Origin: an uncultured Candidatus Peribacteria bacterium
GTDB lineage: Bacteria; Patescibacteriota; Gracilibacteria; UBA1369; 2-02-FULL-48-14
NCBI GenBank assembly: GCA_964441065.1
Contig: CAYTWD010000001.1
Coordinates: 5,975-69,974 of the forward strand
Direction: 5' to 3'
DNA length: 64,000 nt
The notes beneath the pieces are model-generated. The model did not search any database. It saw nothing but the letters and a program-made list of their open reading frames with translations, and was not told the DNA's origin. Both the position numbers and the translations under genes were made by a program. Shown piece by piece: positions 9,560 through 63,943 of the stretch. The stretch's first letter is position 1. Each line of letters starts with the position of its first letter.

Positions 9560-12500
9560 ATGAATATCTCTTTCATATATAGGAAGTTCCGAAAATCTAT
9601 AGCTGGTATTGCTCTAACTGCACTTCTTGCGTCTTTCGTAAGTTTTGCAGCTGTTGCATCAGCGTCATTCCCTGACACTGATGGACACTGGGCATCTGAC
9701 TACATTGATGAACTAGTTTCACAAGGTGTAGTTTCCGGTTATGACAACGGTAACTTCGGTCCAGATGATTCTCTAACAAGAGGTCAATTGGCAAAAATCG
9801 CAGTTCTAGCCTTCGGGATAGAACTAGACAGCAGCTACGATGCAGGATTCGCTGATGTGGATTCAAATGCATGGTACGCTGAATACGTAAATACAGCAGC
9901 TAAGAACGGTATCGTTGGTGGTTACACTGACTCTAACGGTGTTGCAACTGGATATTTTGGTCCAGATGACACAGTTAACCGAGCTCAAGCAGCTAAAATT
10001 CTTGTAAACGCAGCTGGTCTTGCTACAGACACTACGGGAGCTCCTCATTTCGATGACGTTGCTTCAGGTGATTGGTACTACGACTACGTTGAAACAGCTT
10101 ACAACAACACAGTTGTTGATGGTTACAGCAATGGAAACTACGGTCCTGCTGATGCAGTGACTCGTGGTCAGATTTCTAAGATGACCGTTAACTCTCAGAA
10201 CCCTGTTGTTCGTGATACAACCGACGATACCACAGATGATACTACATCTGGTGATGGTACTCTAAAACTAGAGATGATCAGCATCGACGGTGGTACAGTT
10301 CCAAAGGGTGCTACAGCCGTTCCGGTTCTTGGAATTAAGGCTACAGCTTCTGGAGCAGACATGACATTGAAATCATTGGTATTGAGCCGAAGTGGAGTAG
10401 GTGCTACATCCGATATTTCAAACTTGTACTTCTACAACGGCACAGAAAGAATTGGATCAGGTCACTCTGTAAGCAGCGACACAAACACTTCAACATTCAG
10501 TTCACTTAACGTGGACGTTGCTGAAGGTGAGTCTGCTATGTTCTACATCAAATCTGATTTCTCTTCTACAGCCTCTTCAGGAAATGAACACTATTTCTCC
10601 GTACCAAGTGCAGACGTTGTTGGAGTTGATAGCGGTTCAGTGACTGGATCATACCCATTAGACGGTGATGTATTCACAGTTGGTGGTGCATCTGCAGGAA
10701 CAGTTACAATCTCAAGAAATAGCTCAGTATCTAACCCAACAATCGGTGATACAGATGCTACTGTTGCTGATTTCAAACTTGCAGGAGCTAATGAAAATAT
10801 GTCAGTTCAGCACATTGCTCTTATTGTTAAAGGAACAATCTCTACTACAGGTCTAGACATGCTTTCACTTGTTCAAAACGGTGAAGTATTGGCTACTGCC
10901 GACGTAGTAAGTGATAATCAATTGATCACTTTTGATCTTGATACTCCTTTCGAACTAAACAAGGGTGATACAAGAACATTCTCTGTAACTACAGAAGTTA
11001 CTTCAAAAGCAAGACCTGATGATACAATTAAGATTTATCTTGATGAAACAACAGATCTAGTAGCTATCGGTGAAACTTATGGCTACGGTGCTCAGGTTAC
11101 AAAGACAGATTACGACAACAGTGCCGCTGACGGTACTGATGCTAGCTGGTCAACAGTTCAGGGTGGAGACTTTACAATAGCCTTCGGAGGTCCTTCTGTA
11201 TCTAACTTTGCACCAAATGCAAAAGACGTTCAGATCTTGGATCTTACATTCTCTTCTCAAAGAGACGTTGAGGTTAGAAGACTTTCATTCCTTGTTGCCG
11301 CTACAGGTTCAGGTTTGATCGATGCTGATGGCGCTACTGCGAACTTCACAGACGTTAAACTTATTGATACTGACTCTGGTTCTACATTGATGGGGCCACA
11401 GGAATTATCAGTCACTGGTTCTGACTCAAGTCAAACAGTTGCATTCACTGATAGCTGGTATTTATCAGCAGGTGAATCAATGAGCGCGGCTCTTTCAGTA
11501 GATATTGCTAACGAATCAACCATGGACGGTTCAACCGTTACTGGTACCTTGTCTGCAGTAAGCACAACTGAAGGTGTTAAGGATTCAGGTACAGGTCAAT
11601 TCTTGACTAATATCGTTCCTTCTACAGCTATAGCTGGTTACGCGCACAACATTCAAACAGCTTCTCTAGCTGTTGCTTTAGCTTCAAGCCCGGTTTCTGA
11701 CACATTCGTGAAAGGAACTATGGGAGTTACTCTTGCAGGTTTCGTATTCACAGCTGGTTCTGCTAGCGACATCGTAATCAGTAAGATCCTACCTACACTT
11801 GATTACTGTACATCAGCTTGTACAGCAGCAGGTTCATGGACGGCTTCTGGTTCATCAGGTGCTTACTACGGTAAGACTGACGTAGGTACTTTGTACTTAT
11901 ACGACGAAGACGGTAACCAACTTGGTACTTCTGAGGCAGTTCCAAACGGTGGTAAACCTACTTTTGATGGATTTAACCTAACTGTATCTGCAGGTTCAAC
12001 TGAAACTGTGTACGTAGTTGGTGATATTTCATCATCAGCTCCAATTGACGATGGTACTTCTACTACAACTAACGTTGTTGGTGTAGATATCGAAGCTACA
12101 GGTGACGTAACTGCTGCAGACGAAGACAACAACTCAGTAACATTGACAGCTGCTGATCCAAACGGTTCAACAGATACAAATGCTACAACTGTTGCTATGA
12201 CTATCTCTACAGGTGGTTCAATCGTAGTTAGTGCTCCTTCAACTCAGGTTAATGACCAACTTCTAGCAGCTGCATCTACTGATGTATTGCTTGGAAGATT
12301 CAAAGTTAAGGCTACTAGCGAAGATTACAAAGTTGATAGAATTATGCTTTACTCAACAAACAGTGGATCTGAAGATTCATTCAAGTCAGTAAAGATCAAG
12401 TATCCAACAAGCACAAGTGCTCCAACAACTCTTGATGGATCATCTAGTGCTACATTCTCAGGTACAGCGGCTACATTCGCTAACTTGAGTTTCATGGTTC

Positions 12501-13438
12501 CAAAATCAAACGACAATGTGACATTTGAGATCTACGTATCTGCAAATACACACGCCGACGATTCTGGTGCTACAGATTCTGGAGATGATCTTCAGATGAC
12601 TCTATACCCATACGCTGCAACTACATCTACAAGCACATTCAACGCTGTAGGTCAGGGTTCTGGTGCTACATCGACAGCGGCTACAGCGAGTGTAATCCCA
12701 GCCGGAGGTCTATCTACAAACCATGCGTATGTATTTAAGACAACTCCAACAGTAACAGTTGCTGATGACTCTGCTTCTATCGTTTACGGTACTGAGGCTG
12801 AAGTATTCAGATTCACAGTTGCTGCGGGTGCGAACGGCGATATTGCTCTTCTTGGTCTTAAGTTCGATGTATCATCTTCAGGTGTCTTGACTGGTTCAAC
12901 TGGTCTTGGTGCTGTTGATACAGCTACTTACTCAAGAAACGCAGGTGATGCTCTATCCAACACTTGGAAGATGTACGAAGTTGTTAACGGTTCAGTTGAT
13001 AACTCAGTACCGGTAGGTTCAGGTCAATACTTATACGGTCCAGGAATTGGTTCTGCTCTAACAAACCTTGTATACATGCAGGTTTACCAGAACATTACTA
13101 ACTGGGCTGCTGGTACAGGTGCTTTCGAAAAAATTACTGCTGGTTCAAGCAGAACATTCGTTGTAGATGCTCCAGTACAGGATGATGGTACTTCAAACAC
13201 CAACTCCGTATCTGTACGTATCTCTACAGACAATAGCGCTCTATACCAACAATTGGCTACTGACACTATTACTACAGGTCTAGATAACTATGATGGTGTA
13301 ACCGTTCTAGGTTCATCTTCATTCATCTGGTCTGATCGACCAAACGTTTCAGGCTTTGGTACAGGTTCTTCCGCTACATACTGGAATAACGCTTACAAAG
13401 TTACTGGCGTACCTTCAAGTTACGTAACATCTACATGA
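9560..13438 (+). CDS. secreted SLH-domain surface (S-layer) protein
   Basis: 1292 aa. Signal peptide ending AAVASA|SF, followed by three SLH repeats (FPDTDGHWASDYI..., FADVDSNAWYAEYV..., FDDVASGDWYYDYV...). The remaining roughly 1050 aa are rich in Thr, Ser, Gly, Ala, Val and Asp. Codon choice is strongly T-ending, which suggests high expression. Confidence 0.85.
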   Translation: MNISFIYRKFRKSIAGIALTALLASFVSFAAVASASFPDTDGHWASDYIDELVSQGVVSGYDNGNFGPDDSLTRGQLAKIAVLAFGIELDSSYDAGFADVDSNAWYAEYVNTAAKNGIVGGYTDSNGVATGYFGPDDTVNRAQAAKILVNAAGLATDTTGAPHFDDVASGDWYYDYVETAYNNTVVDGYSNGNYGPADAVTRGQISKMTVNSQNPVVRDTTDDTTDDTTSGDGTLKLEMISIDGGTVPKGATAVPVLGIKATASGADMTLKSLVLSRSGVGATSDISNLYFYNGTERIGSGHSVSSDTNTSTFSSLNVDVAEGESAMFYIKSDFSSTASSGNEHYFSVPSADVVGVDSGSVTGSYPLDGDVFTVGGASAGTVTISRNSSVSNPTIGDTDATVADFKLAGANENMSVQHIALIVKGTISTTGLDMLSLVQNGEVLATADVVSDNQLITFDLDTPFELNKGDTRTFSVTTEVTSKARPDDTIKIYLDETTDLVAIGETYGYGAQVTKTDYDNSAADGTDASWSTVQGGDFTIAFGGPSVSNFAPNAKDVQILDLTFSSQRDVEVRRLSFLVAATGSGLIDADGATANFTDVKLIDTDSGSTLMGPQELSVTGSDSSQTVAFTDSWYLSAGESMSAALSVDIANESTMDGSTVTGTLSAVSTTEGVKDSGTGQFLTNIVPSTAIAGYAHNIQTASLAVALASSPVSDTFVKGTMGVTLAGFVFTAGSASDIVISKILPTLDYCTSACTAAGSWTASGSSGAYYGKTDVGTLYLYDEDGNQLGTSEAVPNGGKPTFDGFNLTVSAGSTETVYVVGDISSSAPIDDGTSTTTNVVGVDIEATGDVTAADEDNNSVTLTAADPNGSTDTNATTVAMTISTGGSIVVSAPSTQVNDQLLAAASTDVLLGRFKVKATSEDYKVDRIMLYSTNSGSEDSFKSVKIKYPTSTSAPTTLDGSSSATFSGTAATFANLSFMVPKSNDNVTFEIYVSANTHADDSGATDSGDDLQMTLYPYAATTSTSTFNAVGQGSGATSTAATASVIPAGGLSTNHAYVFKTTPTVTVADDSASIVYGTEAEVFRFTVAAGANGDIALLGLKFDVSSSGVLTGSTGLGAVDTATYSRNAGDALSNTWKMYEVVNGSVDNSVPVGSGQYLYGPGIGSALTNLVYMQVYQNITNWAAGTGAFEKITAGSSRTFVVDAPVQDDGTSNTNSVSVRISTDNSALYQQLATDTITTGLDNYDGVTVLGSSSFIWSDRPNVSGFGTGSSATYWNNAYKVTGVPSSYVTST

Positions 13439-13476: not shown

Positions 13477-13506
13477 AGCCCCCCGCTTCGGCGGGGGGCT
13501 TTTTTG
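13477..13506 (+). terminator. strong intrinsic terminator of the S-layer gene
   Basis: A 10-bp GC stem, AGCCCCCCGC-TTCG-GCGGGGGGCT, followed by TTTTTG. Confidence 0.85.
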
Positions 13507-13562
13507 TTTACTGGCCGAAGGCCAGCCATTCGGTCAGCGCCGAACGGCGCGCACAGCTAAAA

Positions 13563-13579: not shown

Positions 13580-14641
13580 TTACAACAAATCCAAATACAA
13601 TTTCTCAAACTCATCCGCCGCCTTATCCCATGAAAAGTTTTTCTTTTCGCTAACTTTCCACTCTCCGGCTTCAGCTTTTTTCAGTGCATCAATCAACGAG
13701 GTCTTGTCTCCGCTTCTGAAAATCAAATGCTTTCCGCCGGCGATTTCAGGCAGTGAACCCGCATCGCTGAGAATAACCGGAACATCCATCGCCATCGCCT
13801 CTGCGGCGGTGAATCCAAAACCTTCCGCAAGGGAAGGTACAACAACCGCGTCGGCCTTCGCAATTTCACCGGGCAAGTCTGCACGTGCAACACTTTTCTT
13901 GACGGTCACAAAATCAGAAATTCCTGAAATCATTTTCTCAACTCTGGCAAAATCTTCATCACTACCGGAAAGTAATAATTTAAATTCTGTTTTTCCTCGG
14001 TAGTCTTTATAAAACTCTTGAAGACTTTCAATCAAAAACCAGATTCCTTTGTTGCCGGCAATTCTTCCGAAGTATAAAAATTCAAAACCTTCATGCGGGA
14101 CACTAGAAGGCGTGAACATCTCATCGATCCCATGGTAAATCACGTTAGACTTTCCTTTCAATTTTTTTTGAGTGGCTTTTGAAACCGCCACGGTGTGATC
14201 AAAATTAAATCCCAAAAGAATTTGTTCCAAAAAACCAAATAATCGAGCTTTATGGGCGTGTCTCGGAAACACATGTGTAAAGTCCGGACCCAACACCTCA
14301 TGCACGCTTAGAACAGAAGTTTTGCCATGAATTTTTGAAGCAATCCAGGCCGGTAGAACAGCGTTATACATTGTTGCATGAATTATGTCCGCCTTAGCTC
14401 CAATTTTCATAACTAGCGGAATCGATAAAAATGTAAAAGAATTTTGAGTTTTTCCTACTCGGTAAATAGTTCCGCCTTCCTCTTTTTCAACACTTGGTGC
14501 ACCGGTTTCAGCCGAAGTTATAACATCCACGTGATGCCCACGCGCAATCAGGCGTTTTCGTAGCTCAAAAAAGAACGTTTCAACTCCGCCGATGTGCGGA
14601 GGATAATGTTCGGCAACAAAAAGAATTCGAAGAGTTTTCAT
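13580..14641 (-). CDS. glycosyltransferase family 4
   Basis: 353 aa. N-terminus RILFVAEHYPPHIGGVE and C-terminal EGFGFTAAEAMAMDVPV (EX7E region). Confidence 0.85.
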   Translation of the reverse strand: MKTLRILFVAEHYPPHIGGVETFFFELRKRLIARGHHVDVITSAETGAPSVEKEEGGTIYRVGKTQNSFTFLSIPLVMKIGAKADIIHATMYNAVLPAWIASKIHGKTSVLSVHEVLGPDFTHVFPRHAHKARLFGFLEQILLGFNFDHTVAVSKATQKKLKGKSNVIYHGIDEMFTPSSVPHEGFEFLYFGRIAGNKGIWFLIESLQEFYKDYRGKTEFKLLLSGSDEDFARVEKMISGISDFVTVKKSVARADLPGEIAKADAVVVPSLAEGFGFTAAEAMAMDVPVILSDAGSLPEIAGGKHLIFRSGDKTSLIDALKKAEAGEWKVSEKKNFSWDKAADEFEKLYLDLL

Positions 14642-14979
14642 TTTTTTGGAATGTCGCGCAGGCTGTCTTCTCGAACAATTTGAGTTATCTCTCGTTCAAG
14701 AGATTCAAGTTTAACGTAAATTCTGTAGATTAAATAAAACAAAATCACAATTCCGGAGTAAACAAAAACATCCACACCACGGCCAATTCCAAATTTCTTT
14801 GCAAGAAACTCGGTTGTGTTTGGAATAAAAAGTACAATCAAAAACCCAATCCAAATCATTGACCAAAAAATCAAACCGAACAAACTAACGCTATCATCTC
14901 TGTATCTTAAAAAAACTCGACTCCAAGCAAACAAAACAAAAATCGCTCCTACAATTTGAATTAAACTTATATTGTACAT
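14638..14979 (-). CDS. small membrane protein, DUF2304-like
   Basis: 113 aa with three TM helices, a GIGRGVD motif and a C-terminal amphipathic tail. It overlaps the downstream GT4 gene by 4 nt and is separated by 1 nt from the upstream GT2 gene. Placement next to a GT2 is typical of DUF2304 proteins. Confidence 0.5.
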   Translation of the reverse strand: MYNISLIQIVGAIFVLFAWSRVFLRYRDDSVSLFGLIFWSMIWIGFLIVLFIPNTTEFLAKKFGIGRGVDVFVYSGIVILFYLIYRIYVKLESLEREITQIVREDSLRDIPKK

Positions 14980-14980
14980 A

Positions 14981-15676
14981 TTATTTGATTAAGCGATGCA
15001 TTAGTAGTCTAGCAAATGTTTTGATTCCCACAAAAAAACTTTGTCCTTTTGAGAGAGAATAATCCGTGTAAATTGCCTTAATTGGAACCTCTTTGAACCT
15101 TAAACCATGGTATCCGATCTCACGAATAATTTCACTGCTTACTTCCATTCGATTTGTTCTAATTCTAATGTGCTCTGCTGCATTTCTATTGAAACCGCGA
15201 AGGCCGGATTGGCTGTCGGTTGTCCAAACTCCAAACAAAAAATAAGTCACATAATTTGCGATTCGATTTGCGATTCTTCTTTTCATCGGCATTCCCTCCG
15301 GATCAATTAAACGTGAGCCGATTACAACATCAGCCTCACGTCGTTTCAGCGGAGAAAGAACCTTTTGAATATCTTTCGTATCGTGCTGACCATCCGCGTC
15401 AAAAGTAATTATATACTCCGCGCCCATTCTGAGCGCTCCTTGAATTCCTGTTCCCAAAGCACCTCCGAGGCCGCGATTCAACTTGTGTTTAACAACAACT
15501 TGCGCATGTTTTTTAGCGACTTCAAAAGTGTCATCTCTACTGCCGTCATCAACTACAATCGTTTTTTCATAACCGGCTTCTTTCAGATTTTTCAAAACCT
15601 TCAGAATTGTGTTCCCTTCGTTGTACGCCGGAATAACTATCCAAGTGTCATGCATAATCAAGTACCAACATCCCAA
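14981..15676 (-). CDS. glycosyltransferase family 2 (polyprenyl-phosphate sugar synthase-like)
   Basis: Contains VIPAYNEG, VVDDGSRDDT and FDADGQH motifs. The more likely start is the ATG at 15655 (MHDTW...). Confidence 0.85.
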   Translation of the reverse strand: MGCWYLIMHDTWIVIPAYNEGNTILKVLKNLKEAGYEKTIVVDDGSRDDTFEVAKKHAQVVVKHKLNRGLGGALGTGIQGALRMGAEYIITFDADGQHDTKDIQKVLSPLKRREADVVIGSRLIDPEGMPMKRRIANRIANYVTYFLFGVWTTDSQSGLRGFNRNAAEHIRIRTNRMEVSSEIIREIGYHGLRFKEVPIKAIYTDYSLSKGQSFFVGIKTFARLLMHRLIK

Positions 15677-16908
15677 GAAGACAAATATTTTTTCTGTTCT
15701 TCGGTTAATTGGTCGATTGAAACGCCCATTGCTTCCAGTTGAAGTCGAGAAATATCATCATCAATGTGCTCGGGAAGTGTGTAAACTTTTGCGCTCAAAG
15801 TCGCTTTATTTTTTACCAACCATTCGCAAGCCAAGGCCTGACCACAGAATGAAAGTGACATGACTTCGCTCGGATGACCTTCCGCTGATGCAAGATTTAT
15901 AAGTCTGCCCTCGCCGGCCAAGAAAAGAACTTTCCCGTCGAAAGCGTATTCATCAAAATAAGGTCTGATGCGGCGTTTTGTCGCCATTTTTTCAAGACCT
16001 GCAACATCGATTTCAAGATCAAAATGTCCGCTGTTAGCCATCATCGCGCCATTTTTCATAACTTTCATGTGCTCTGTTCTAATCACATGTTTATTTCCGG
16101 TCACAGTAATAAAAATATCACCTTCTTTCGCCGCGTCTTCCATTTTCATAACTCGGAATCCGTCCATCTTTGCCTGCAAGGCACGAAAAGGATTTACTTC
16201 AGTGACAATCACGTTCGCACCCATTCCTTTTGCACGAAGCGCGCAACCTTTGCCGCAACTTCCATAACCCAAAACAACAACATTTTTCCCAGCGAACAAA
16301 ATATTTGAAGCGCGAATTATTCCGTCCAAAGTCGATTGGCCGGTTCCATAATAATTGTCCATCAAATGTTTTGTGAGGTTGTCGTTCACGGCAACCATCG
16401 GAAACTTCAAAATATTATCTTTTTCCATTGCCTTTAAACGAATCACTCCGGTTGTTGTTTCTTCGCATCCGCCCAAAACTTTAGCGGCTTTTTCAGGATG
16501 TTTTGTTAAAAGTTCGGTAACCAAATCGCAACCGTCGTCAATTGTGATGTCCGGCTCAAATGCAATAACTTGATTCAAAAAATTGTAATATTCTTCGCTT
16601 GATTCGCCTTTGTGACCGAAGACTAAAACTCCTTCTTCAAGTGCCAAAGCCGCCGCCACATCGTCTTGTGTTGAAAGTGGATTGCAACCTGTTATTGCCA
16701 CCAGAGCGCCCCCGGCGCGCAAAGTTCTAACTAGAATCCCTGTCTCTTTTGTTATGTGAAGAGCCATACCGATTTTCAAACCGGCAAAAGGCTTTTCTTT
16801 AGCGAATCTTTCACGAACCTTTAGAAGCGCGTGCATATTCCTTTCCGCGAGTTCCAAATTTAACTTCCCTTGATCGGCAAGTGCCGGATTTTTAACGATT
16901 GATTCCAT
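15658..16908 (-). CDS. ahcY: adenosylhomocysteinase
   Basis: 416 aa. Contains GCNPLSTQDDVAAAL, the NAD site GYGSCGKG and HFDLEID, all typical of SAH hydrolase. Confidence 0.95.
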   Translation of the reverse strand: MESIVKNPALADQGKLNLELAERNMHALLKVRERFAKEKPFAGLKIGMALHITKETGILVRTLRAGGALVAITGCNPLSTQDDVAAALALEEGVLVFGHKGESSEEYYNFLNQVIAFEPDITIDDGCDLVTELLTKHPEKAAKVLGGCEETTTGVIRLKAMEKDNILKFPMVAVNDNLTKHLMDNYYGTGQSTLDGIIRASNILFAGKNVVVLGYGSCGKGCALRAKGMGANVIVTEVNPFRALQAKMDGFRVMKMEDAAKEGDIFITVTGNKHVIRTEHMKVMKNGAMMANSGHFDLEIDVAGLEKMATKRRIRPYFDEYAFDGKVLFLAGEGRLINLASAEGHPSEVMSLSFCGQALACEWLVKNKATLSAKVYTLPEHIDDDISRLQLEAMGVSIDQLTEEQKKYLSSWDVGT

Positions 16909-16910
16909 TT

Positions 16911-18893: not shown

Positions 18894-18900
18894 GTAATTT

Positions 18901-20385: not shown

Positions 20386-20391
20386 CCGCTC

Positions 20392-20457: not shown

Positions 20458-20459
20458 TT

Positions 20460-55423: not shown

Positions 55424-55469
55424 GAAATTTAGATAGAATCTGCAGAATTATACAGGTATAATTCGCGAC

Positions 55470-55880
55470 ATGAAACAGCACTTAGAAAAAATCCCCGTAA
55501 GCCTCAGACAATTCATCAAATTCTGTTTCGTGGGCTTACTAAACACCGCAATTGATACATTTGCCTATATTTTTTTCACCAGGGTTCTTGGGATATTTTA
55601 CCTTTTGGCAAACATATTTGCCTTTATGATCTCCTCAACTAACAGCTATTTTTTAAATAGGGTTTTTACTTTTAAAAGCACTCACGATAAAAAGAAACTG
55701 GAGTACGGAAAGTTTATGAGTGTCTTGCTTGTTGGTTTGTTTCTGGCTGAAATTGTTCTCTTTATCTGTGTACACTTCTTTGGTCTCGATGACATTATTG
55801 GCAAGCTAAGCGCAATCGCAGTTGTTCTATTCTGGAATTTCTTTGGAAGTAAGTTTTTTGTCTTTAAAATAAAGAAGTAA
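55470..55880 (+). CDS. GtrA-family membrane protein
   Basis: 136 aa with four TM helices. Contains FIKFCFVGLLNTAID and NSYFLNRVFTFK. Confidence 0.8.
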   Translation: MKQHLEKIPVSLRQFIKFCFVGLLNTAIDTFAYIFFTRVLGIFYLLANIFAFMISSTNSYFLNRVFTFKSTHDKKKLEYGKFMSVLLVGLFLAEIVLFICVHFFGLDDIIGKLSAIAVVLFWNFFGSKFFVFKIKK

Positions 55881-56940
55881 AACTTTTTAAAATCCGCTTT
55901 TTATCAAATGATTCAACCCTTTTAAGGCCATCTTTTTTAAGTTCCTCGTAAATTTTTGCAGAACTTAAAATTTCCAAGCATTTTTCAGCACCGATTCCGG
56001 GATTTTCGAAGTCAAAAGTAAATTTTTTCTGTTTTTCCGTAAGTATAGCTTCCGCTCCCAATGTTTTTGTTGAAACAATCGGTAATCCCACCGCCATTGC
56101 CTCAATAATTACTCTTCCGAATTCCTCTTCTCTTGAAGGATTTATAAATAAATCGGCTTTTTTGAAGTAAGATAATATATCTTTATTGGCTACCGCACCG
56201 GGCATTTCAACTTCTAAGTTTCTTTTTTTAAATTCATCCTTCAGGAAAATAAAATCCGGGCCTTCTCCAACTACAATAAATTTAACACCGGCCATATTTT
56301 TTGAAATTTCAGAAAATATTTCAGGCAAAATACGGCTACCTTTTCTCGGTGAAAGCCAATGCAAAAATAAAATCGTTTTCCCGGGTTTTTTCTCTTTTAC
56401 CCTCAATTTTTCCGTATTGACCCAATTAGGTAAAACCTCAATTTTTCTCAATGGAACACTAAATTCTTTAAAATAATATTTCTTCATTTGCTCGGAACAT
56501 GTCACTAAATTTGAACAAAGCTTCAAAACCCATCTAAAAGGCCAGTCTTTTGTAATTTTTGCCGGCAAATTGCACAAATTACATGACTCCTCATATTCTT
56601 TACGCATTTCGCAGTGCCAAAAATAAAGTTTGCCAAAACTGATTCTGCAAATTAAACCCGCGATCATTGCGCTTAAATATGCGTAATGAGAATAAAAATT
56701 TTTATAGCCACAGACTCTTGCAACCCAAAAAATAAAAAATCTTTCCAAAATTCTCATGGGCAAAAAATTGAATTTTGCCACATAAATATTTTGAATATTT
56801 GATTTAAACTTTGCACCTTTTTCAATAAATAAAAATACGCGCATCTCTTTTGCAACTTCTTCCAAAAGTTCAACATTATATCTGAAATGTGTGGACGTAT
56901 CTTCATAATATTCAGGCAAAATGTAAAAAAGTTTTTTCAT
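55864..56940 (-). CDS. glycosyltransferase family 4
   Basis: 358 aa. Contains EEFGRVIIEAMAVGLPIV. Confidence 0.75.
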   Translation of the reverse strand: MKKLFYILPEYYEDTSTHFRYNVELLEEVAKEMRVFLFIEKGAKFKSNIQNIYVAKFNFLPMRILERFFIFWVARVCGYKNFYSHYAYLSAMIAGLICRISFGKLYFWHCEMRKEYEESCNLCNLPAKITKDWPFRWVLKLCSNLVTCSEQMKKYYFKEFSVPLRKIEVLPNWVNTEKLRVKEKKPGKTILFLHWLSPRKGSRILPEIFSEISKNMAGVKFIVVGEGPDFIFLKDEFKKRNLEVEMPGAVANKDILSYFKKADLFINPSREEEFGRVIIEAMAVGLPIVSTKTLGAEAILTEKQKKFTFDFENPGIGAEKCLEILSSAKIYEELKKDGLKRVESFDKKRILKSFTSLF

Positions 56941-58058
56941 AATCCCAAATAAGTTTCGGCATAATTTTTTATCGCCTTTTTATATTCAAACACGCGAACG
57001 GAGTTCGCGCCTTCCTTTCCCATTTCCCGCATTTTTTTAGGATTCTTCAGTACAAATTCCATTTTTTTCGCAATCGACTTTGCATCCCAGCCAATTTCAA
57101 TGGAATTTTTTTTATTCATCACCTCTTTCATTATTCCCACAGGTGTGGATAAAACCGGCGTTTCACAGGCCATCGCTTCAAGAGTAACTCGAGGTCCACC
57201 CTCTGAAAATGAGGGCATAATCAACGCAGCGGACTCGCTATACACTTTTGCCAAATCTTCGTGTTTTGGAAGCCAACCCAAAATTTCCACATTTAAATTT
57301 TTACTAAGCTTTTTGACCTTATTTAACAAGGTACCGTCACCAATCATTTTCAATTTTGCCTTAGGATATTTTTTTGAAACCATCTCAAGGGCGTATAGCA
57401 AAGCAAAGATATTTTTATTAGTTTCAAATCTACCGGAGTAAACAAATTGCCATTCATTTCTTTTAATTTTACGCGGTTTGAAAATTTCAAAATCAACATA
57501 AAAAGCAGGAATGAAAATCATCTTTTTCTCAGGCACACCCAAATCCAAAATAAATTTTTTAGTTTCACCAGGATTTATAACTCTAATTCTATCGAATTTT
57601 TCCCAATTCTTTTTCAAAAATTTAGCCATTGTCATTTTTTCTAAAAACTCTCGTGGCCCGCTTGCTTTTGGATATCCGGGAATATGCATTACCTCAGCAT
57701 AATGAGAAATCTTAAGTTCGCTCGCTATTTTTATCGCCGCTTTTGTTCCCGGGAAAAAAGGTGGAATCACATGTGAAATCACAAAACTTAATTTATTTTT
57801 CTTATTTATTTCAAGCGTTTTTTTTACAGCAAATTTCTCATGTTTTAAAAAATCATTTCTTAAAATTCTGCTCAAATTATTTGGATGTACATGTACATTT
57901 TTATGAATTGTAAAACTTTTACCAACTCCATTTGAACCTGTAATAACATGCACGTTGTCAAAATATTTGGAAAATTCTTTTAGCATTTCAAAAAAAATAT
58001 TATGCTTTCCGTGGGCGATTCCGCTGTCGCCGCTAATCATCAAAATATTTTTTTTCAT
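56937..58058 (-). CDS. glycosyltransferase family 4
   Basis: 373 aa. Contains EGGPRVTLEAMACETPVL. Confidence 0.8.
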   Translation of the reverse strand: MKKNILMISGDSGIAHGKHNIFFEMLKEFSKYFDNVHVITGSNGVGKSFTIHKNVHVHPNNLSRILRNDFLKHEKFAVKKTLEINKKNKLSFVISHVIPPFFPGTKAAIKIASELKISHYAEVMHIPGYPKASGPREFLEKMTMAKFLKKNWEKFDRIRVINPGETKKFILDLGVPEKKMIFIPAFYVDFEIFKPRKIKRNEWQFVYSGRFETNKNIFALLYALEMVSKKYPKAKLKMIGDGTLLNKVKKLSKNLNVEILGWLPKHEDLAKVYSESAALIMPSFSEGGPRVTLEAMACETPVLSTPVGIMKEVMNKKNSIEIGWDAKSIAKKMEFVLKNPKKMREMGKEGANSVRVFEYKKAIKNYAETYLGL

Positions 58059-59257
58059 ATCAATTTTTTGAGCTTCTCAATGTGAGTATTCCATGAAAAC
58101 TCACTCTTGAGTAGCTTGACACCATTGATGCAATGTCTTTCTCTTCTTTTCTTATCCCAAGATAAATTTCTAATTGCCTCCGCTAATCTTTTTGGATTTT
58201 CCGACTCGGCCAAAACCGCGGTTTGATCATCAATTGCAACTTCATTCGTACCCAAAATATTTGAAGCCACGACGGGACATCTCGCCGCAAATGCCTCTAA
58301 AATCACATGTGGTAAACCTTCGTAACTTGAATATAAAATGAACATTTCATGTTTTTCCATCGCACGTGAAAGTTCACTATGTGAAACATTACCAAAAAAT
58401 TTGACACGATCTCCCAGCTCGGCCGCTATACCTATTAATTTTTCTTTTTCCGGCCCGCTCCCGTAAACATCCAAAGTATATTTTTCAGGAAGCAATTTCA
58501 TCGCTTCAATAATTAAATTCACATTTTTATGAGGAACAAGCCTACCTCCACACATTAATTTGTAAGCCCTTTCCCCATGTTTTTTTTCGACATTCCTATA
58601 TTCAAATGCATTATAAACTCTTGTAATTTTAGATTCAGACACATCGTAGTACTTCATTAGTAAATCTTTCAAATATTGTGATGGCACAAGAATTTTATCA
58701 ACATTTTCAAAACTTTTTTTCTGTACCCACTGTAAGATTTTAGATTTCAAATCTTTATTTTCCGTTTTGAGCCATTCATTCAAATCCAAACTGGTTTTTC
58801 TGCTTCTGGAAGCTTCTTCCCAAGCAATATCACCCACAAATTTCAGCATGGATTTAATTCCAAATCTTCTTGCAAAAAAAGATGATACAAAGCCAACTAC
58901 CACTGGTCCTTGAATATAAATAAAATCAGCTCGGCGTGAGTGTTTCCATAAATTTTTTAATAATCTTAACTGTCTGCCCAAAAAACCGTGTTTACGGGGG
59001 TTGATTATGTGAATATCTATATTTTTCATAAGAATGGGCTTTGTTTCACAGAAAGCAATCACGCTAATATCAAAATCGTCTTTTAAACGTTGACCCAGTT
59101 CATACACATAAGAAGCCGGACCTCCAATATCAGGAGGAAAAATCGGGCTCACAATAGTCAATTTAGACAGTTTTTTGTTTTTCCAATTGTTCATTTTCGT
59201 TTCGAATATTTCTTTGACCTCGAAGCTTTCCGCTAAAGTTTTCAAATAAACTTTCAT
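58055..59257 (-). CDS. glycosyltransferase family 4
   Basis: Contains PPDIGGPASY and EGLPHVILEAFAARCPVV. The real start may be the ATG at 59194 (MNNWKNKK...). In either case the gene overlaps the 3' end of the upstream SDR gene. Confidence 0.8.
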   Translation of the reverse strand: MKVYLKTLAESFEVKEIFETKMNNWKNKKLSKLTIVSPIFPPDIGGPASYVYELGQRLKDDFDISVIAFCETKPILMKNIDIHIINPRKHGFLGRQLRLLKNLWKHSRRADFIYIQGPVVVGFVSSFFARRFGIKSMLKFVGDIAWEEASRSRKTSLDLNEWLKTENKDLKSKILQWVQKKSFENVDKILVPSQYLKDLLMKYYDVSESKITRVYNAFEYRNVEKKHGERAYKLMCGGRLVPHKNVNLIIEAMKLLPEKYTLDVYGSGPEKEKLIGIAAELGDRVKFFGNVSHSELSRAMEKHEMFILYSSYEGLPHVILEAFAARCPVVASNILGTNEVAIDDQTAVLAESENPKRLAEAIRNLSWDKKRRERHCINGVKLLKSEFSWNTHIEKLKKLI

Positions 59258-60263
59258 TCGCGGAAATCCATGTAATTAATTTTTTAAGCCCTTCTGCAGG
59301 CGTGAATTCAGGCTTCCATCCAAATTCTGACTCCGCTTTTCGAATATCGGAGATATAAACTTGCTGATCTCCCGGTCTCCAATCGGTAAATTTCCTTTCA
59401 ATTTTTTTGCCAAAATATTTTTCCAAATAATCTAAAAGTTCCAAAAGAGAAAGCGTCTTTTCAGGGCCGCCCCCCACATTGTAGACTTGCCCCGCAGTTT
59501 TATCGATGTTCTGAATAGACAAATCGTAAGCTTTCATCAAATCTTCAATAAAAAGTACATCTCGAACCTGTCTACCATCCCCAAAAATCGTTAATTCTTT
59601 GTCAAACATGGCCGCAATTGCAAACCATGCAACCCAACCTTGATCTTCAACTCCGAATTGTCTGTATCCGTAAATGCAGGACTGTCTCAAAACAATAGTT
59701 CTCAAACCATAAATTCTGAAATAATCACGGAAATATTGATCCGCGCCGCCCTTTGAACAGCCGTAAGGAGAGTGAAAATCAAGCCCGCGTTCTTCTGAAA
59801 CACCCATCGGCAAATTTTCATAGGCGTATCTTCCATCTTTTTCAACAATCTTAGCGTCTTCCATTCCGCCATAAACTTTATTTGTTGAGGAATAAAGTAC
59901 AATCGGCATAGGATCTAATTTTCGACAAGCCTCCAACACATTAAAACTTCCCAAAGCATTTATTTCAAAATCGTTTCGCGGATCTGTTACAGAGGTAGTT
60001 ACCGCAACCTGTCCTGCCAAATGAATTACTATTTCCGCTCCCGAAATCGCTTTTTCCAAAGTCGCAGGGTCTCTAACATCGCCCTCCACAACTTTAATTT
60101 TTGGATATTCATTCAAAAGCCATTCGGAATTTTTTCGCGTTCCCTCCCTCGAAAAATTATCAAAAATCGTAACCTCATCGCCCTTCTTGCTAAAGTATGC
60201 CGCCGCATTAGATCCAATGAAGCCTGCTCCACCCGTAATAAAAACTTTTCTCATAGCCGGCAA
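59163..60263 (-). CDS. NAD-dependent epimerase (CDP-paratose 2-epimerase-like SDR)
   Basis: 366 aa. Contains VFITGGAGFIGSN, DNFSREGTRKNSEWL, YGCSK and GDGRQVRDVLF. Confidence 0.75.
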   Translation of the reverse strand: MPAMRKVFITGGAGFIGSNAAAYFSKKGDEVTIFDNFSREGTRKNSEWLLNEYPKIKVVEGDVRDPATLEKAISGAEIVIHLAGQVAVTTSVTDPRNDFEINALGSFNVLEACRKLDPMPIVLYSSTNKVYGGMEDAKIVEKDGRYAYENLPMGVSEERGLDFHSPYGCSKGGADQYFRDYFRIYGLRTIVLRQSCIYGYRQFGVEDQGWVAWFAIAAMFDKELTIFGDGRQVRDVLFIEDLMKAYDLSIQNIDKTAGQVYNVGGGPEKTLSLLELLDYLEKYFGKKIERKFTDWRPGDQQVYISDIRKAESEFGWKPEFTPAEGLKKLITWISANESLFENFSGKLRGQRNIRNENEQLEKQKTV

Positions 60264-60396
60264 TCTACCAGATCAGGTTGGCTTTGACAAGCCTAAACCT
60301 CAACTGTTGTCACAGTTCTGACAACACTATTTGAATCTGATTATTGATAATTATATTTTGCAAAAAGAATCTAATAATCTATAAATTAATCGGTTA

Positions 60397-60435
60397 TTGC
60401 ATATGTAGCCATAATAATATATAATGTAGCTATAA
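60397..60435 (+). promoter_or_regulatory. consensus-like promoter with two direct operator-like repeats upstream of hicA
   Basis: TTGCAT (60397-60402), a 17-nt spacer, then TATAAT (60420-60425). The repeats are ATGTAGCCATAA (60403-60414) and ATGTAGCTATAA (60424-60435). The ATG at 60437 lies 11 nt after the -10 element. Confidence 0.5.
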
Positions 60436-60436
60436 A

Positions 60437-60682
60437 ATGACTAGTAAAGAGAAGCTTTTAAGTAAATTTTTTAATAATCCAATCTCTCTAAAATACAAAG
60501 AAATTGAATATCTACTGCTTGAAAGCGGATTCCATAAAATAGAAGCAAAAGGAAGTCATATAAAATTTAAACATTATTTGTTGCCAAGAAATCTAATAAT
60601 TCCAATACACGATAATGACTGCAAAAATTTCTACAAAAAATACGCCAGTAAAATCCTTAAATCACTTCGTTACATTGAATAA
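60437..60682 (+). CDS. hicA: HicA-family mRNA interferase toxin
   Basis: 81 aa. Contains GFHKIEAKGSHIKFKH, which matches the YcfA/HicA G-S-H motif. Confidence 0.7.
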   Translation: MTSKEKLLSKFFNNPISLKYKEIEYLLLESGFHKIEAKGSHIKFKHYLLPRNLIIPIHDNDCKNFYKKYASKILKSLRYIE

Positions 60683-60962
60683 CAGGAAATATTTTTATTC
60701 TTTAAGAAAAGTTAATTCAAAAACGACGTACTTTGAATGTGAAGCCGCAAACATTTCTCAACCTTTCCAGAATGAAGATATAGCCGAACTTTTAATTGAT
60801 CTGCCAAATTTAATTTTATCTGAAAAAGAATATCTTGAAAAACAAAATATAGTTATCAGATTTAGAGTAAATGTTAATGATAAAAAACTTATTGAAGAAA
60901 AAGCTTCAAAAAACGGATTTAAAACCATATCGGATTATTTAAGAGAAGTCGCAACCAAATAA
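60615..60962 (+). CDS. putative cognate antitoxin (C-terminal ribbon-helix-helix-like segment); start uncertain
   Basis: The C-terminus VNVNDKKLIEEKASKNGFKTISDYLREVA resembles RHH/CopG antitoxins. The ORF as drawn overlaps hicA by 68 nt and has no internal ATG. Confidence 0.35.
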   Translation: MTAKISTKNTPVKSLNHFVTLNNRKYFYSLRKVNSKTTYFECEAANISQPFQNEDIAELLIDLPNLILSEKEYLEKQNIVIRFRVNVNDKKLIEEKASKNGFKTISDYLREVATK

Positions 60963-62074
60963 GCCTCCTCAACTTTGTTTGCGATATTTCTCCAGTCGTA
61001 ACTTTGTTCAACCAAAATTCTCGCGTTTTTAACTATTGATTTCATCATGCTCTCATTCACAAACGCAAAAATAATTTTTTGAGCCAAAGCATCTGCGTCA
61101 TCAACAGGAGCAAGTAAACCAGTTTCCCCGTCTCTCAAGAAATCTACAATTCCGCCCACAGGGCAGGTAACAACCGGGGTACCCAGTGCCATAGCTTCAA
61201 TAAACGAAACCCCAAAGCCCTCAAATCGTGACGGCCTAACAAACAGATGCGATTTCTTCACGAGTTCCGGAATTTCATCGTGCTTAAGAGTTCCCAAAAA
61301 CTCCACTTTTATTCCAAGCCTTTCAGCTATTTTTTTCAAATCCTCTTGCATAGGTCCTTCACCCGCAATCTTTAATTTTGCCATTGGAAATTCAGCCGTG
61401 ACGGCGGGCATTGCTTCAATTAAAACATCAATCCCGTTTCGTGGAATTAAGGTTGAAGTTGTGCAAATTTCAAACATATTTCTTTCTCCTTCGTAAAGTT
61501 GAAATTTTTCCAAATCGATTCCATTTGGAATTAAAACGCAATTTTTGGCACCCATTTTTTCAGCCGCATTTTTTGAAAAATTACTGACGCAAGCGCAAAC
61601 ATCGGCATTTTTCAGCGCGCTTTTCACCCAAAAACCCAAGAAAAACAAAAATGGTTTTAATAGAGTTCCCAAAAATCCTTTCAAAATCATTTCTTCCTTG
61701 TAAGCCAAGGGATTTTGAACCGTAACATAAAGCGGAATTCCCAATTTTTTCTTTAATTTCGCGCCCGCGATTGCTTGAGGATAAACCTGTTTCGCGTGTA
61801 ATAAATCAAATTTTATTCCACAATTCATAATTTCTTTAATAACAGCTTTTTCAAAAGCCCAAGAATTAAAATTCCCGATTTTTTTATATTGAACCGCGTG
61901 CACAAATACATTCTCAGCAAAAAGTGATTTCGCTGAATCGTCATTTCCAACAAAAAGATGCATCTCATATCCTTTTTTTGCAAGCTCACTCACAATTTCA
62001 ACAATATGCACCTCAGCACCGCCCAAATCATTTGGATTTAGATCCGCGCAAATTACAGCAACTTTGACACTCAT
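60935..62074 (-). CDS. glycosyltransferase family 4
   Basis: 379 aa. Contains DLGGAEVH and EGFGVSFIEAMALGTPVV. Confidence 0.85.
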   Translation of the reverse strand: MSVKVAVICADLNPNDLGGAEVHIVEIVSELAKKGYEMHLFVGNDDSAKSLFAENVFVHAVQYKKIGNFNSWAFEKAVIKEIMNCGIKFDLLHAKQVYPQAIAGAKLKKKLGIPLYVTVQNPLAYKEEMILKGFLGTLLKPFLFFLGFWVKSALKNADVCACVSNFSKNAAEKMGAKNCVLIPNGIDLEKFQLYEGERNMFEICTTSTLIPRNGIDVLIEAMPAVTAEFPMAKLKIAGEGPMQEDLKKIAERLGIKVEFLGTLKHDEIPELVKKSHLFVRPSRFEGFGVSFIEAMALGTPVVTCPVGGIVDFLRDGETGLLAPVDDADALAQKIIFAFVNESMMKSIVKNARILVEQSYDWRNIANKVEEAYLVATSLK

Positions 62075-62910
62075 CTTATATATTTAAATAAAATCCTTGA
62101 CGCCATTGATAGCACGGAAACAGGTAGAAAAGCCATCAATTTTGCCGGTAGACGACTTCTTTTCCCATGGCGAATTTGTCCTTTTTGAACTGTCCACACC
62201 GGTATTTTTTTTGTTCCGAATCTTGATTTGAAAAATGCCAACGAAGAACTTTCTTCACTGTTCCCAAAATCCACTTCCAAGCCATTTTCACACGCAAATT
62301 TTATTACATCCGCGTAAGTTTTCATATTAGCTGATGACAGACGAGCCTCTTTGGACTGTCCGTTACTCCAAATGTGAAGCCTATTACCATTTCGCAGTGC
62401 CACAATCCCGGAAACATCTTTGCCATTCAATTTACTCAAAAATAAAATAAAGTCTTTGCCAAACTCTTTTCTTGCCGCGGAAAAAAGTTCAAAACTTTGT
62501 GGAATAGCCCCAATCCCGCACATACTTCGAACATACATTTTATAATATTCCCAAAGCGACTCTTCATCATTGGCAATTTCAGTCACAACTCCGTTTTTCT
62601 CGGCTTTATAAATCAAATTTCTGCTTTTTTGATGTATGTCCTCTTTCAAAATTCTCTCAAAGCTTTTATCACATTTTAACCTGTAAGTTTCCAATCCGCT
62701 CTCAAAATTCCAATATTTTGGTTTTGAATCGACACGAATAATGGCATTCGCCTTTTCAAAAAAATCCGCATTTGGCATTTCAATATAATCACCCACAAAA
62801 TTCATTTCCATTCCGCCGCGAGTTTCAAAAAGCCAAACCCCGCAAATCTTTTCGGAGCGAATTCCATAAGCGTCTTTCAAAATTTTTGACCACTCATCAC
62901 GATTAAACAT
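62071..62910 (-). CDS. FemAB/GNAT-fold acyl- or aminoacyl-transferase-like protein
   Basis: 279 aa. The segment LSKLNGKDVSGIVALRNGNRLHIWSNGQSKE...FKSRFG resembles the FemAB/BioF2-like acetyltransferase family. Confidence 0.4.
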   Translation of the reverse strand: MFNRDEWSKILKDAYGIRSEKICGVWLFETRGGMEMNFVGDYIEMPNADFFEKANAIIRVDSKPKYWNFESGLETYRLKCDKSFERILKEDIHQKSRNLIYKAEKNGVVTEIANDEESLWEYYKMYVRSMCGIGAIPQSFELFSAARKEFGKDFILFLSKLNGKDVSGIVALRNGNRLHIWSNGQSKEARLSSANMKTYADVIKFACENGLEVDFGNSEESSSLAFFKSRFGTKKIPVWTVQKGQIRHGKRSRLPAKLMAFLPVSVLSMASRILFKYIR

Positions 62911-63943
62911 TTTTAAGTAAGTTACAAATGATTTTCACGTCTTTTCCTGTCATAAATTTGTTGACCGGCAAAATCAAAACTCTTTTTGCGAAACCGCATG
63001 CCGAATTGTACCAGATTCTATCTCCAAATATGCCATAAACTCTTAATTTACCCAAAACCTCATTGCGATTTTTATCTTTTGGAACAAGAATAGGGAAGTT
63101 AAAAAAATCATCAACAGGCTCCTTTAAAACAGCTCTATATTCTTTTGGCAGATTTTCAAAATATGACTTATAAACCGCCTCACAATTATTGAGCATTTTT
63201 AATCTTCTCATTAAAAGTCTTTTTGAACCTTCGCTCGCGGACTTAAAAGCGGAATATTTTTTATCATTTTCTTCGTCATTATCTATAGGGAGTTTTTTTG
63301 TGGAACGATATAAATTTAATACGGGTCTAATCAATCCAATTTTTAGAATTACTGAAACTAAACCTGAAAAAAATGAAGCATGTTTTCCCAATTGAGGAAA
63401 ATGTATAGACTCCGAAATCAAAATTCCACCTTGAGAATTCGCAATTCTTTTCGCGAAATGAAACAACACAAAATCACCAAAAGTTTTTTCAATGCTCAAA
63501 GAATGAGCGCAATCCTCAATCAAAAAAAGTTTCTTTTCTTTGCAAAGCGCAGAAATTTTTTCAACATCTCCCTTATTTCCAAAAGTTCTAACAAAAAATA
63601 CTCCGCCAAAATCTTCCAACAGCATCTTTTTCAGTTCTTCATAGTCTAAGATTCCTTCTGAATTTACTTCACAATAATCAACTTTTATACCGGCTCTTTC
63701 GGCAGCGCGTGTAACTGAACCGCAAATGTATTTTGGGAAAATAACTCGTCGTTTCTCCATTTCCAAATTTTTGAAAAGGAATTCAACAGCGCCTCGCAAA
63801 TGAGCAAAACTTTGTGCATATTTAAACTTCCTCCCACCCATAAGTTTTTCCGCAACTTCAAAATCGGAAAAGTTTTTTGACTTCACCATGAGGCATTGAA
63901 TGTCGCGCCAATCGGAGACGGGCATCACATCAGGAATCGGCAT
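62903..63943 (-). CDS. divergent DegT-family PLP enzyme
   Basis: 346 aa. The segment LIEDCAHSL...FHFAKRIANSQGG retains the Lys, but the GEGG motif is degenerate. Confidence 0.5.
   Translation of the reverse strand: MPIPDVMPVSDWRDIQCLMVKSKNFSDFEVAEKLMGGRKFKYAQSFAHLRGAVEFLFKNLEMEKRRVIFPKYICGSVTRAAERAGIKVDYCEVNSEGILDYEELKKMLLEDFGGVFFVRTFGNKGDVEKISALCKEKKLFLIEDCAHSLSIEKTFGDFVLFHFAKRIANSQGGILISESIHFPQLGKHASFFSGLVSVILKIGLIRPVLNLYRSTKKLPIDNDEENDKKYSAFKSASEGSKRLLMRRLKMLNNCEAVYKSYFENLPKEYRAVLKEPVDDFFNFPILVPKDKNRNEVLGKLRVYGIFGDRIWYNSACGFAKRVLILPVNKFMTGKDVKIICNLLKNV

Follow-up and report, generated by a model that had tools for sequence, protein, structure and literature searches.

A probable cell-surface glycan locus linked to a putative SLH-anchored S-layer gene in Candidatus Peribacteria

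Our study concerns a 64,000-nucleotide stretch of DNA (positions 5,975 to 69,974 of contig CAYTWD010000001.1, referred to below as the window) from an uncultured Candidatus Peribacteria bacterium of groundwater, a member of the Patescibacteria or candidate phyla radiation (CPR). The window most likely carries a chromosomal cell-surface glycan locus that is linked to the gene of a surface layer (S-layer) protein anchored by surface-layer homology (SLH) domains. The glycan genes form an island directly downstream of the S-layer gene, and the locus is a mosaic of four blocks, without being one unit: a conserved proximal module interleaved with ahcY and metK; a block for UDP-GlcA/UDP-Xyl and methylation; a variable block with Wzx, pseudaminic-acid and KpsS-like genes; and a conserved distal block, which opens with a GDP-hexose operon and continues with GtrA, five GT4s and enzymes of acyl or amino modification. 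From its gene content, family assignments and conserved synteny, all established in this analysis, we are somewhat inclined to think that this mosaic, tied to the S-layer gene, encodes a methylated heteroglycan that would be exported by the flippase Wzx and is probably capped with pseudaminic acid (Pse), together with a polyprenyl-phosphate-sugar route that would end in a GT-C glycosyltransferase resembling protein O-mannosyltransferases (PMTs).

Results

The S-layer gene and its glycan neighbours stay together in relatives

All 61 plausible genes among the open reading frames (ORFs) of the window were scanned with Pfam and NCBIfam; family counts refer to matches above Pfam thresholds, and equivalog calls to scores above the curated NCBIfam cut-offs. 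Between positions 13580 and 63943 the DNA is 97.3% coding, and about 43 of the 54 ORFs in this run carry sugar-metabolism or glycosyltransferase domains, in agreement with the nearly unbroken island of glycan genes described in a first-pass annotation of the sequence. The S-layer gene, on the forward strand, is convergent with the first genes of the island, on the reverse strand (Table 1).

Six species-level Peribacteria relatives, whose S-layer proteins are 38-77% identical to that of the window, keep the order DnaJ, S-layer gene, glycosyltransferase, DUF2304 protein, PpgS-like GT2, AhcY and MetK, followed by more glycan genes. Co-occurrence of the S-layer gene and the island had been proposed as a check on the first-pass annotation, and the pattern in these six bears it out, none having the SLH gene with the island absent beside it. 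One relative has both the S-layer gene and the distal block on a single contig, 48 kb apart as against 38 kb in the window, with the gene order of the window kept in that block. The distal 18 kb, from GDP-mannose 4,6-dehydratase (GMD) to the DegT-like gene, has the same order in two relatives, at 64-94% identity in one (locus L078) and 45-93% in the other (L079). The islands of relatives end one gene beyond that of the window, with a fusion of a GT4 and a polysaccharide deacetylase, after which housekeeping genes follow (far boundary in L080-L082). Since they end one gene past the end of the window, the island, which runs past that end, can be put at about 52 kb here, or about 4-5% of a genome of about 1 Mb (related complete contigs measure 0.96-1.44 Mb).

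A recently acquired mobile genomic island is a very improbable explanation, and we rejected it. Relatives with 88-97% identity in their housekeeping genes have the same blocks in unchanged order at 64-94% identity, in three relatives the island meets the same housekeeping genes at its far end, and no integrase, transposase or flanking repeat was found among the ORFs. Recent acquisition would account for the lower GC content of the distal part (0.35, against 0.41-0.43 for the backbone), for a remnant of a NikA-like/HicA toxin-antitoxin system, for the Bro-N genes inserted in one relative and for the tRNA genes upstream.

The sugar genes themselves are less constant than the linkage. In a relative with a 41% identical S-layer protein, GT4_a, the first gene of the island, is replaced by a GT9 heptosyltransferase and ADP-heptose genes; the DUF2304 and GT2 genes stay, and a homolog of the GT-C candidate stands directly after MetK. 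Because this relative carries GT9 and ADP-heptose genes instead of GT4_a, the glycan chemistry has been swapped and yet the linkage to the S-layer gene has been kept. At about 40% S-layer identity (L004/L005, 14213-17787, and L012), GT9 is accompanied by a full ADP-heptose set, consisting of an SIS protein, a PfkB kinase, an HAD phosphatase and a cytidylyl/adenylyl-transferase, which is unexpected in a presumed monoderm. The middle block of the island (27.8-45.2 kb, GC 0.35-0.37) sits elsewhere in relatives, with Wzx 35-78% and the KpsS-like protein 36-44% identical, and appears from these comparisons to behave as a serotype-like variable polysaccharide block.

A variable block of this kind, with its low GC content and divergent Wzx and KpsS-like proteins, would also be expected of a general polysaccharide or protein-glycosylation locus, serving a capsule, exopolysaccharide, type IV pilin or exoproteins, whose adjacency to the S-layer gene is inherited backbone order. 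Pseudaminic acid often decorates pilins and flagellins, the genes are convergent, and DnaJ, AhcY, MetK, PPDK and GDH share the conserved synteny. Peribacteria moreover encode pili and many large exoproteins (PMC4736985). We nevertheless consider this explanation unlikely, given that the adjacency holds down to 38-41% S-layer identity despite the replaced sugar chemistry, that the window holds no capsule export genes (Wza/Wzc, KpsMT) or pilin genes, and that in 48 other genomes glycan genes are tied to this protein family by an unrelated arrangement.

This other arrangement occurs in a branch of the protein family that lacks SLH domains and is of Uhrbacteria type, where 48 of 77 loci (L008 and 47 loci from L016 to L075) share the order sigma-70, DUF5667, S-layer-like gene, Wzy_C+TPR protein (about 790 aa), GT4, asparagine synthase and SDR, within a stretch from about 2.3 kb upstream of the S-layer-like gene to 7 kb downstream. 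Wzy_C is the family of O-antigen ligases and O-oligosaccharyltransferases (O-OTases), and a Wzy_C protein adjoins the S-layer-like gene in these loci only. To judge by its families and order, the arrangement looks like a second, different candidate for S-layer glycosylation.

The S-layer protein has a widespread body and exchangeable anchors

As the first-pass annotation had it, the S-layer gene encodes a secreted protein of 1292 aa with three SLH domains: PF00395 matches over three stretches (130 bits), and a Sec-type signal peptide is predicted at residues 1-35, with the motif A-S-A and cleavage before S36. The SLH region (about 36-215) is followed by an acidic Thr/Asp linker (218-233) and an all-beta body (235-1292), and the composition of the protein (24.5% Ser+Thr, 143 acidic versus 57 basic residues, two Cys) is typical of S-layer proteins. 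An AlphaFold2 (AF2) model of the body is all beta-sandwich (pLDDT 86). Foldseek matched it to generic tandem Ig-like arrays only, with very low TM-scores, and no solved S-layer relative was among its PDB matches. BLAST found no internal sequence repeats in the body, and an exact look-up found no identical copy of the protein on record.

We collected 159 homologs. The body, of about 1050 aa and most variable in its C-terminal 200 aa, is common to Peregrinibacteria, Gracilibacteria, Uhrbacteria and other Patescibacteria, and is joined to three SLH domains, to another N-terminal domain without SLH or, in a Liptonbacteria protein, to PG_binding_1 (proteins P0044-P0054); the wall anchor of the body appears from this distribution to have been swapped during evolution. 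The SLH motifs of the window protein are TRGQ, NRAQ and TRGQ (NRAE, NRAE and TRAE in relatives), with a conserved Arg in each repeat, and the Arg of TRAE-type motifs in SLH repeats binds the secondary cell-wall polymer (SCWP). A conserved Ser/Thr-rich linker was considered as the site of O-glycosylation and rejected, the linker being acidic everywhere and Ser/Thr-rich in the closest relatives only.

Hairpin counts around the S-layer gene, and the site counts of a promoter/terminator scan there, were not above chance; only the position of one hairpin, at 13485, is suggestive. With the gene convergent with the island and followed by this hairpin and a T-run, the two are not co-transcribed. The GC content of the gene is 0.43 but that of its third codon positions (GC3) is 0.278, a ratio of GC3 to GC lower than that of any other gene in the window, which may reflect the codon bias of a highly expressed gene. 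Upstream lie ORFs for a helix-turn-helix protein of HTH_17-like type (5745-6239, reverse strand, 164 aa) and for a protein with five transmembrane (TM) helices and no family match (6554-7111, forward strand, 185 aa). In loci of Peribacteria, Peregrinibacteria and Gracilibacteria, some of them without a glycan island, both have stayed close to DnaJ and the S-layer gene; the first may regulate the S-layer gene and the second may be its membrane partner.

A conserved proximal module next to housekeeping methyl-cycle genes

The proximal GT2 scores 173.7 bits against the NCBIfam model of PpgS (cut-off 370) and adjoins the DUF2304 gene, a pairing that is conserved in relatives and kept in all six Peribacteria. 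The DUF2304 protein has three TM helices and the GT2 none, and we read them as a putative lipid-phosphate-sugar synthase pair. The mycobacterial protein Rv3632 is a DUF2304 protein as well.

The adjoining AhcY and MetK are 96-97% identical to those of relatives, have a GC content of 0.43 and stay fixed in place while nearby glycan genes change, although in L004 unrelated genes sit between the two. On account of this conservation, backbone GC content and stable position, we take them for housekeeping genes and not cargo of the island. The first-pass annotation had credited the island with its own regeneration of S-adenosylmethionine (SAM); the two genes are present, but for the same reasons the island's ownership of them was rejected.

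The island encodes several sugar branches

Pfam confirmed the counts of three GT2, seven SDR, five DegT-fold enzymes (one weak yet above the cut-off) and three methyltransferases given in the first-pass annotation, as well as its KpsS-like protein (Capsule_synth), Wzx (Polysacc_synt_3) and GtrA; UGDH, MetK and AhcY are also present. Its figure of at least nine GT4 proved too high: seven exceed the Pfam threshold (starts 13580, 27830, 53715, 55864, 56937, 58055 and 60935), and two more GT-B-like ORFs (36406 and 42173) score below it only. All three GT2 are soluble, without a TM helix. Of the four rare-sugar branches claimed, those to uronic acids and xylose, to a nonulosonic acid and to a 3,6-dideoxyhexose are backed by UGDH/UXS, by PseB/PseC/PseI and by GMD with a His-type dehydratase, respectively; the lipid-linked route (GT2s, DegT, GtrA and GT-C) stands at the family level only.

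UGDH is clear by Pfam. A UDP-glucuronate decarboxylase (UXS) is encoded by the SDR gene at 20460-21377, with 363 bits to human UXS1 and 138 bits to the next class. Parts of this block recur in L003, L011 and L079 at 66-96% identity.

Equivalog cut-offs were exceeded by PseB (442.7, cut-off 407.75), PseC (434.9, cut-off 423.5) and PseI (464.8, cut-off 340.25). Scores for the other steps of the pathway were below cut-off: 43.3 for the GNAT protein against PseH (cut-off 93.1), 43 for a 268-aa ORF against PseG (cut-off 153.6, C-terminus only), and 37.5 and 25.7 for two CTP_transf_3 proteins against PseF (cut-off 205.7). Two formyltransferase-like proteins, a PIG-L deacetylase, an extra aminotransferase and a GFO oxidoreductase encoded in the same block suggest that the pseudaminic acid may be derivatised. 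The KpsS-like and GT-B ORFs match the BFO_1060 family weakly (33-35 bits, cut-off 200) and are candidate nonulosonic-acid transferases.

GMD scores 427.5 bits (NCBIfam cut-off 415). The ORF at 47228-48442 has the DegT fold of a ColD/E1-type dehydratase dependent on pyridoxamine phosphate, with a His (MAHLIVT) in place of the catalytic Lys (GNKIIT in the perosamine synthetase 3dr7). As the change of Lys to His is the hallmark of ColD/E1 3-dehydratases, it is reasonable to propose that GMD and this enzyme lead to a GDP-linked 6-deoxy or 3,6-dideoxy hexose, possibly also aminated; the SDR at 48402-49343 gave generic SDR matches and none specific for ColC.

The genes from GMD to the GT-C candidate (46285-53773) overlap end to end, and GtrA (55470-55880; PF04138, 93.7 bits) follows 1.7 kb further on. 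The GT2s starting at 49340 and 50062 resemble ArnC, AglJ and PgfS, with scores below the cut-offs. GT2, GtrA and GT-C encoded together make up the parts list of a three-component lipid-phosphate-sugar route, as far as family-level membership goes. For the ORFs starting at 18901, 19579, 24579, 27474, 31341 and 42173, relaxed Pfam searches returned nothing usable.

A candidate PMT-like GT-C

The 637-aa product of the ORF at 51860-53773 has about 13 TM helices and a soluble tail. The first-pass annotation had called it a GT-C; no Pfam or NCBIfam model matches it directly, even at E<=1, nor did a PDB sequence search yield a match, so the call rests on its topology, its homologs and its fold. Its homologs at 50-65% identity have PF02366 or PF13231, one of them bearing the name GT39. 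The first 21 PDB matches of its AF2 model (pLDDT 74, pTM 0.81) in Foldseek are all GT-C, the best being the protein O-mannosyltransferase Pmt4, and D128-E129, in the predicted first external loop, is invariant. Within the distal block no other gene has diverged as far as that of the GT-C candidate, with 64% identity in L078 (neighbours 69-94%) and 45% in L079 (others 66-93%). In L079, where it is most diverged, the upstream DegT gene is swapped for an asparagine-synthase-like gene and there is a single GT2, which hints that the GT-C may track the sugar made.

No CsaB or other attaching enzyme was found

None of the 61 window ORFs encodes a CsaB pyruvyltransferase (PF04230), and no such gene was seen in those parts of relatives that were read. 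Since no attaching enzyme, primer, LCP ligase or CsaB was found, the acceptor of the glycan and the ligand of the SLH domains cannot be assigned from sequence. The proposal of the first-pass annotation, that the island decorates the S-layer protein, builds the SCWP or does both, thus gains from the linkage of S-layer and glycan genes in six relatives and lacks such an enzyme.

The second half of that proposal amounts to an explanation of its own: the island may mainly build a secondary cell-wall or teichoic-acid-like polymer on peptidoglycan, serving as the SLH ligand, with the S-layer protein unglycosylated. Three SLH domains with the conserved Arg in TRAE-like motifs fit such a ligand, as does the retention of the proximal module specifically in the SLH-bearing Peribacteria clade; Wzx together with uronic-acid/ManNAc-type chemistry is typical of such polymers, and an LD-carboxypeptidase lies within the island. 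In Bacillus anthracis, csaA (Wzx-like) and csaB adjoin sap-eag. We hold this explanation to be doubtful, if slightly less so than that of a general glycan locus: the window has no CsaB, LCP ligase or TagO/WecA-type primer, the SLH homologs L006 and L007 lack such neighbours, and an SLH ligand fails to explain why SLH-less Uhrbacteria-type loci keep glycan genes and Wzy_C. The combination of PpgS, Rv3632 and Rv3779 modifies a wall polysaccharide, in favour of a wall polymer (PMC3485146).

Discussion

For the acceptor, the glycan structure and the way in which the two routes share the work, we infer the following. At the membrane's inner face, the GT4s and the KpsS-like enzyme would assemble the methylated heteroglycan on a polyprenyl carrier, with pseudaminic acid as its probable cap, and Wzx would flip the carrier-bound product. 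The soluble GT2s, one of them with DUF2304, would make polyprenyl-phosphate monosaccharides, which GtrA would flip, allowing the GT-C to transfer the sugar outside the membrane. As acceptor we would prefer the S-layer protein, rich in Ser and Thr, so that the product would be an S-layer O-glycan, and part of the output would probably go to a wall polymer bound by the SLH domains. The explanations by a wall polymer and by a general glycan locus are compatible with this model. We favour the S-layer protein as the main acceptor because its linkage outlives the replacement of sugar genes, because a second clade ties the same protein family to a Wzy_C protein, and because there are precedents in the Pse-capped S-layer O-glycan of Tannerella and in the PpgS/Rv3632/Rv3779 combination.

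Several observations weigh against this model. No priming phosphoglycosyltransferase of the WsaP, WbaP or WecA type (PF02397, PF00953), no Wzy polymerase, and no O-OTase of the Wzy_C (PF04932), PglL or WsaB type, PglB/AglB or LCP ligase was found in the window or in the parts of relatives that were read. The fold match of the GT-C candidate is weak (E = 1.9e-3, TM-score 0.40), and GT-Cs of the PMT_2 type also act on lipids and polysaccharides. About ten more distant SLH homologs (L006 and L007 among them) have no glycan neighbours, and DnaJ, AhcY and MetK, which are plain backbone, are part of the shared synteny, so that gene order handed down with the backbone could by itself account for the adjacency. 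The S-layer gene and the island converge and are not co-transcribed, the Thr-rich linker is not conserved across the family, and the name S-layer is itself deduced from SLH domains, composition and fold.

The locus is not a new kind of system: none of its enzymes falls outside the known families, and Firmicutes and Bacteroidetes are already known to have glycan clusters linked to the S-layer. In the slg clusters of Geobacillus stearothermophilus, Aneurinibacillus and Paenibacillus, wsa genes adjoin sgsE/spaA. Here, as there, the S-layer gene stands beside nucleotide-sugar genes, GT2 and GT4 genes, methyltransferases and lipid-carrier export, in a strain-variable setting of low GC content. The slg clusters however measure about 15-25 kb, as against about 52 kb and four sugar branches here, and use an ABC-transporter route in place of Wzx; neither a WsaP-type primer nor a WsaB (Wzy_C) O-OTase was found in our locus, which has a PMT-like GT-C, GtrA and soluble GT2s instead, and it belongs to a CPR bacterium whose genome measures about 1 Mb.

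Three-component systems are known as GtrA/GtrB/GtrC, CsbB/GtcA/YfhO and ArnC/ArnEF/ArnT, and a related case is protein O-mannosylation by Ppm1 and PMT in actinobacteria. The island resembles them in having a GT2 synthase, a GtrA-family flippase and a GT-C within 6 kb, and the Arn route in its DegT, formyltransferase-like, UGDH and decarboxylase-type genes. Unlike GtrB and ArnC, its GT2s have no C-terminal TM helices, and the sugar appears to derive from GDP-mannose. With csaAB-sap-eag of B. anthracis the locus has in common an SLH S-layer gene beside wall-polymer genes with a Wzx-like flippase; it differs in that no CsaB was found and in being far larger and more diverse.

TfsA and TfsB, the S-layer proteins of Tannerella forsythia, carry, from a general system of protein O-glycosylation, O-glycans capped with pseudaminic or legionaminic acid (PMC5420450). 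Our locus is similar in its pseudaminic-acid pathway with extra derivatising enzymes, in predicted methylated and deoxy sugars, in the S-layer protein as a natural target and in candidate nonulosonic-acid transferases with weak similarity to the BFO_1060/Tanf_01245 family, the match to BFO_1060 being well below cut-off; the two differ in envelope type and in the family of the S-layer protein. In mycobacteria, the GT2 PpgS (Rv3631), the small membrane protein Rv3632 and the GT-C Rv3779 act together (PMC3485146). Common to both would be a soluble GT2 paired with a small membrane protein for a polyprenyl-phosphate sugar, followed by GT-C transfer outside the membrane. The mycobacterial acceptor is arabinogalactan, however, our PpgS match reaches less than half of its cut-off, and the GT-C here is PMT/GT39-like and lies 36 kb from the GT2/DUF2304 pair.

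A genome paper of 2016 described in Peribacteria a heavy investment in amino-sugar polymers, with sialic-acid, perosamine and S-layer genes (PMC4736985), and later papers described SLH proteins in related lineages. Among the papers that our text searches returned, none has a title or abstract on the conserved linkage of S-layer and glycan genes, on the module of PpgS-like GT2 and DUF2304, on a GT-C route of PMT-like type or on the Wzy_C arrangement of Uhrbacteria-type genomes, and those that we read do not describe them.

Cells of the CPR/Patescibacteria are ultra-small, mostly uncultured and thought to live attached to other cells, and it is at their surface that they meet hosts and phages. 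The locus offers testable candidates for host or phage specificity and for antigenic variation, and a defined protein family and gene set to seek in metaproteomes and by cryo-electron tomography. A broader idea, which we put forward very tentatively, is that the Patescibacteria share one ancient family of S-layer bodies, all-beta and about 1050 aa long, with swappable anchors, which would generally be glycoproteins with dedicated adjacent machinery solved clade by clade: in Peribacteria by the polyprenyl-phosphate-sugar/PMT-like GT-C route and the Wzx-exported, Pse-capped glycan, and in Uhrbacteria-type genomes by a Wzy_C+TPR O-OTase under a sigma/anti-sigma pair. If so, the variable glycan block would be the strain-level determinant of host or phage recognition in these episymbionts.

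Further features of the locus

Table 1. Positions, strands and gene order of the features discussed, numbered from the first letter of the window.
Feature	Position	Strand	Contents or order	Basis
S-layer protein gene	9560..13438	+		PF00395, signal peptide, composition, AF2 model
Terminator-like hairpin and T-run	13485..13509	+	47 nt past S-layer stop	Consensus match
Conserved proximal module	13580..15676	-	GT4_a 13580-14641, DUF2304 14638-14979, PpgS-like GT2 14981-15676	Pfam, NCBIfam
Methyl-cycle genes	15658..18044	-	AhcY 15658-16908, MetK 16911-18044	Pfam
UDP-uronic acid/xylose and methylation block	18108..27360	.	FkbM methyltransferase; two unknown ORFs; UXS 20460-21377; methyltransferase; UGDH 22122-23420; EamA transporter; small ORF; Ser hydrolase; two GalE/TviC-like epimerases 25532-27360	Pfam/NCBIfam, UXS1 match
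Variable Wzx/pseudaminic-acid block	27830..45233	.	GT4_b; Wzx 28924-30387; GINT1_N-like ORF; unknown 349-aa ORF; PseB; PseC; PIG-L deacetylase; PseH-like GNAT; formyltransferase-like ORF; GT-B 305 aa; DegT; GFO oxidoreductase; PseI; second formyltransferase-like ORF; two cytidylyltransferases; PseG-like ORF; KpsS-like transferase 43776-45233	Pfam, NCBIfam PseB/PseC/PseI
LD-carboxypeptidase (peptidase S66)	45208..46206	-		Pfam; same place in relative L078
Overlapping-gene operon GMD to GT-C	46285..53773	+	GMD, dehydratase, SDR, GT2, GT2 (both GT2s 49340-50781), DegT aminotransferase, GT-C (51860-53773)	ORF-end overlaps, Pfam
Conserved distal block GT4_c to DegT-like	53715..63943	.	GT4_c, methyltransferase, GtrA, GT4_d, GT4_e, GT4_f, SDR, NikA-like ORF, GT4_g, FemAB-like acyltransferase, DegT-like 62903-63943	Pfam; order kept in L078, L079 at 69-84% identity
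NikA-like ribbon-helix-helix ORF	60615-60962	+	Within distal block	

The LD-carboxypeptidase embedded in the island, an enzyme type of peptidoglycan recycling or trimming, is kept in L078. The ribbon-helix-helix ORF of the distal block has a GC content of 0.27 and is preceded in relatives by a HicA-toxin ORF (L078, 18597-19122; L080, 12988-13513); the two look like a toxin-antitoxin pair held at the same position. In the relative with a 77% identical S-layer protein (L001), two phage-associated Bro-N ORFs lie between the S-layer gene and GT4_a (14151-15977); they are absent from the window. Two small forward-strand ORFs of low GC content, at 24579-24953 (0.30) and 27474-27824 (0.35), stand at block junctions and may be remnants of rearrangement or addiction-type genes. 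Many third-party metagenome-assembled genomes labelled 'uncultured Gammaproteobacteria bacterium' (e.g. L018-L020, L023, L029-L031), and one labelled 'Candidatus Methylomirabilis sp.', carry the Patescibacteria-type S-layer locus and are probably mislabelled bins or contigs.

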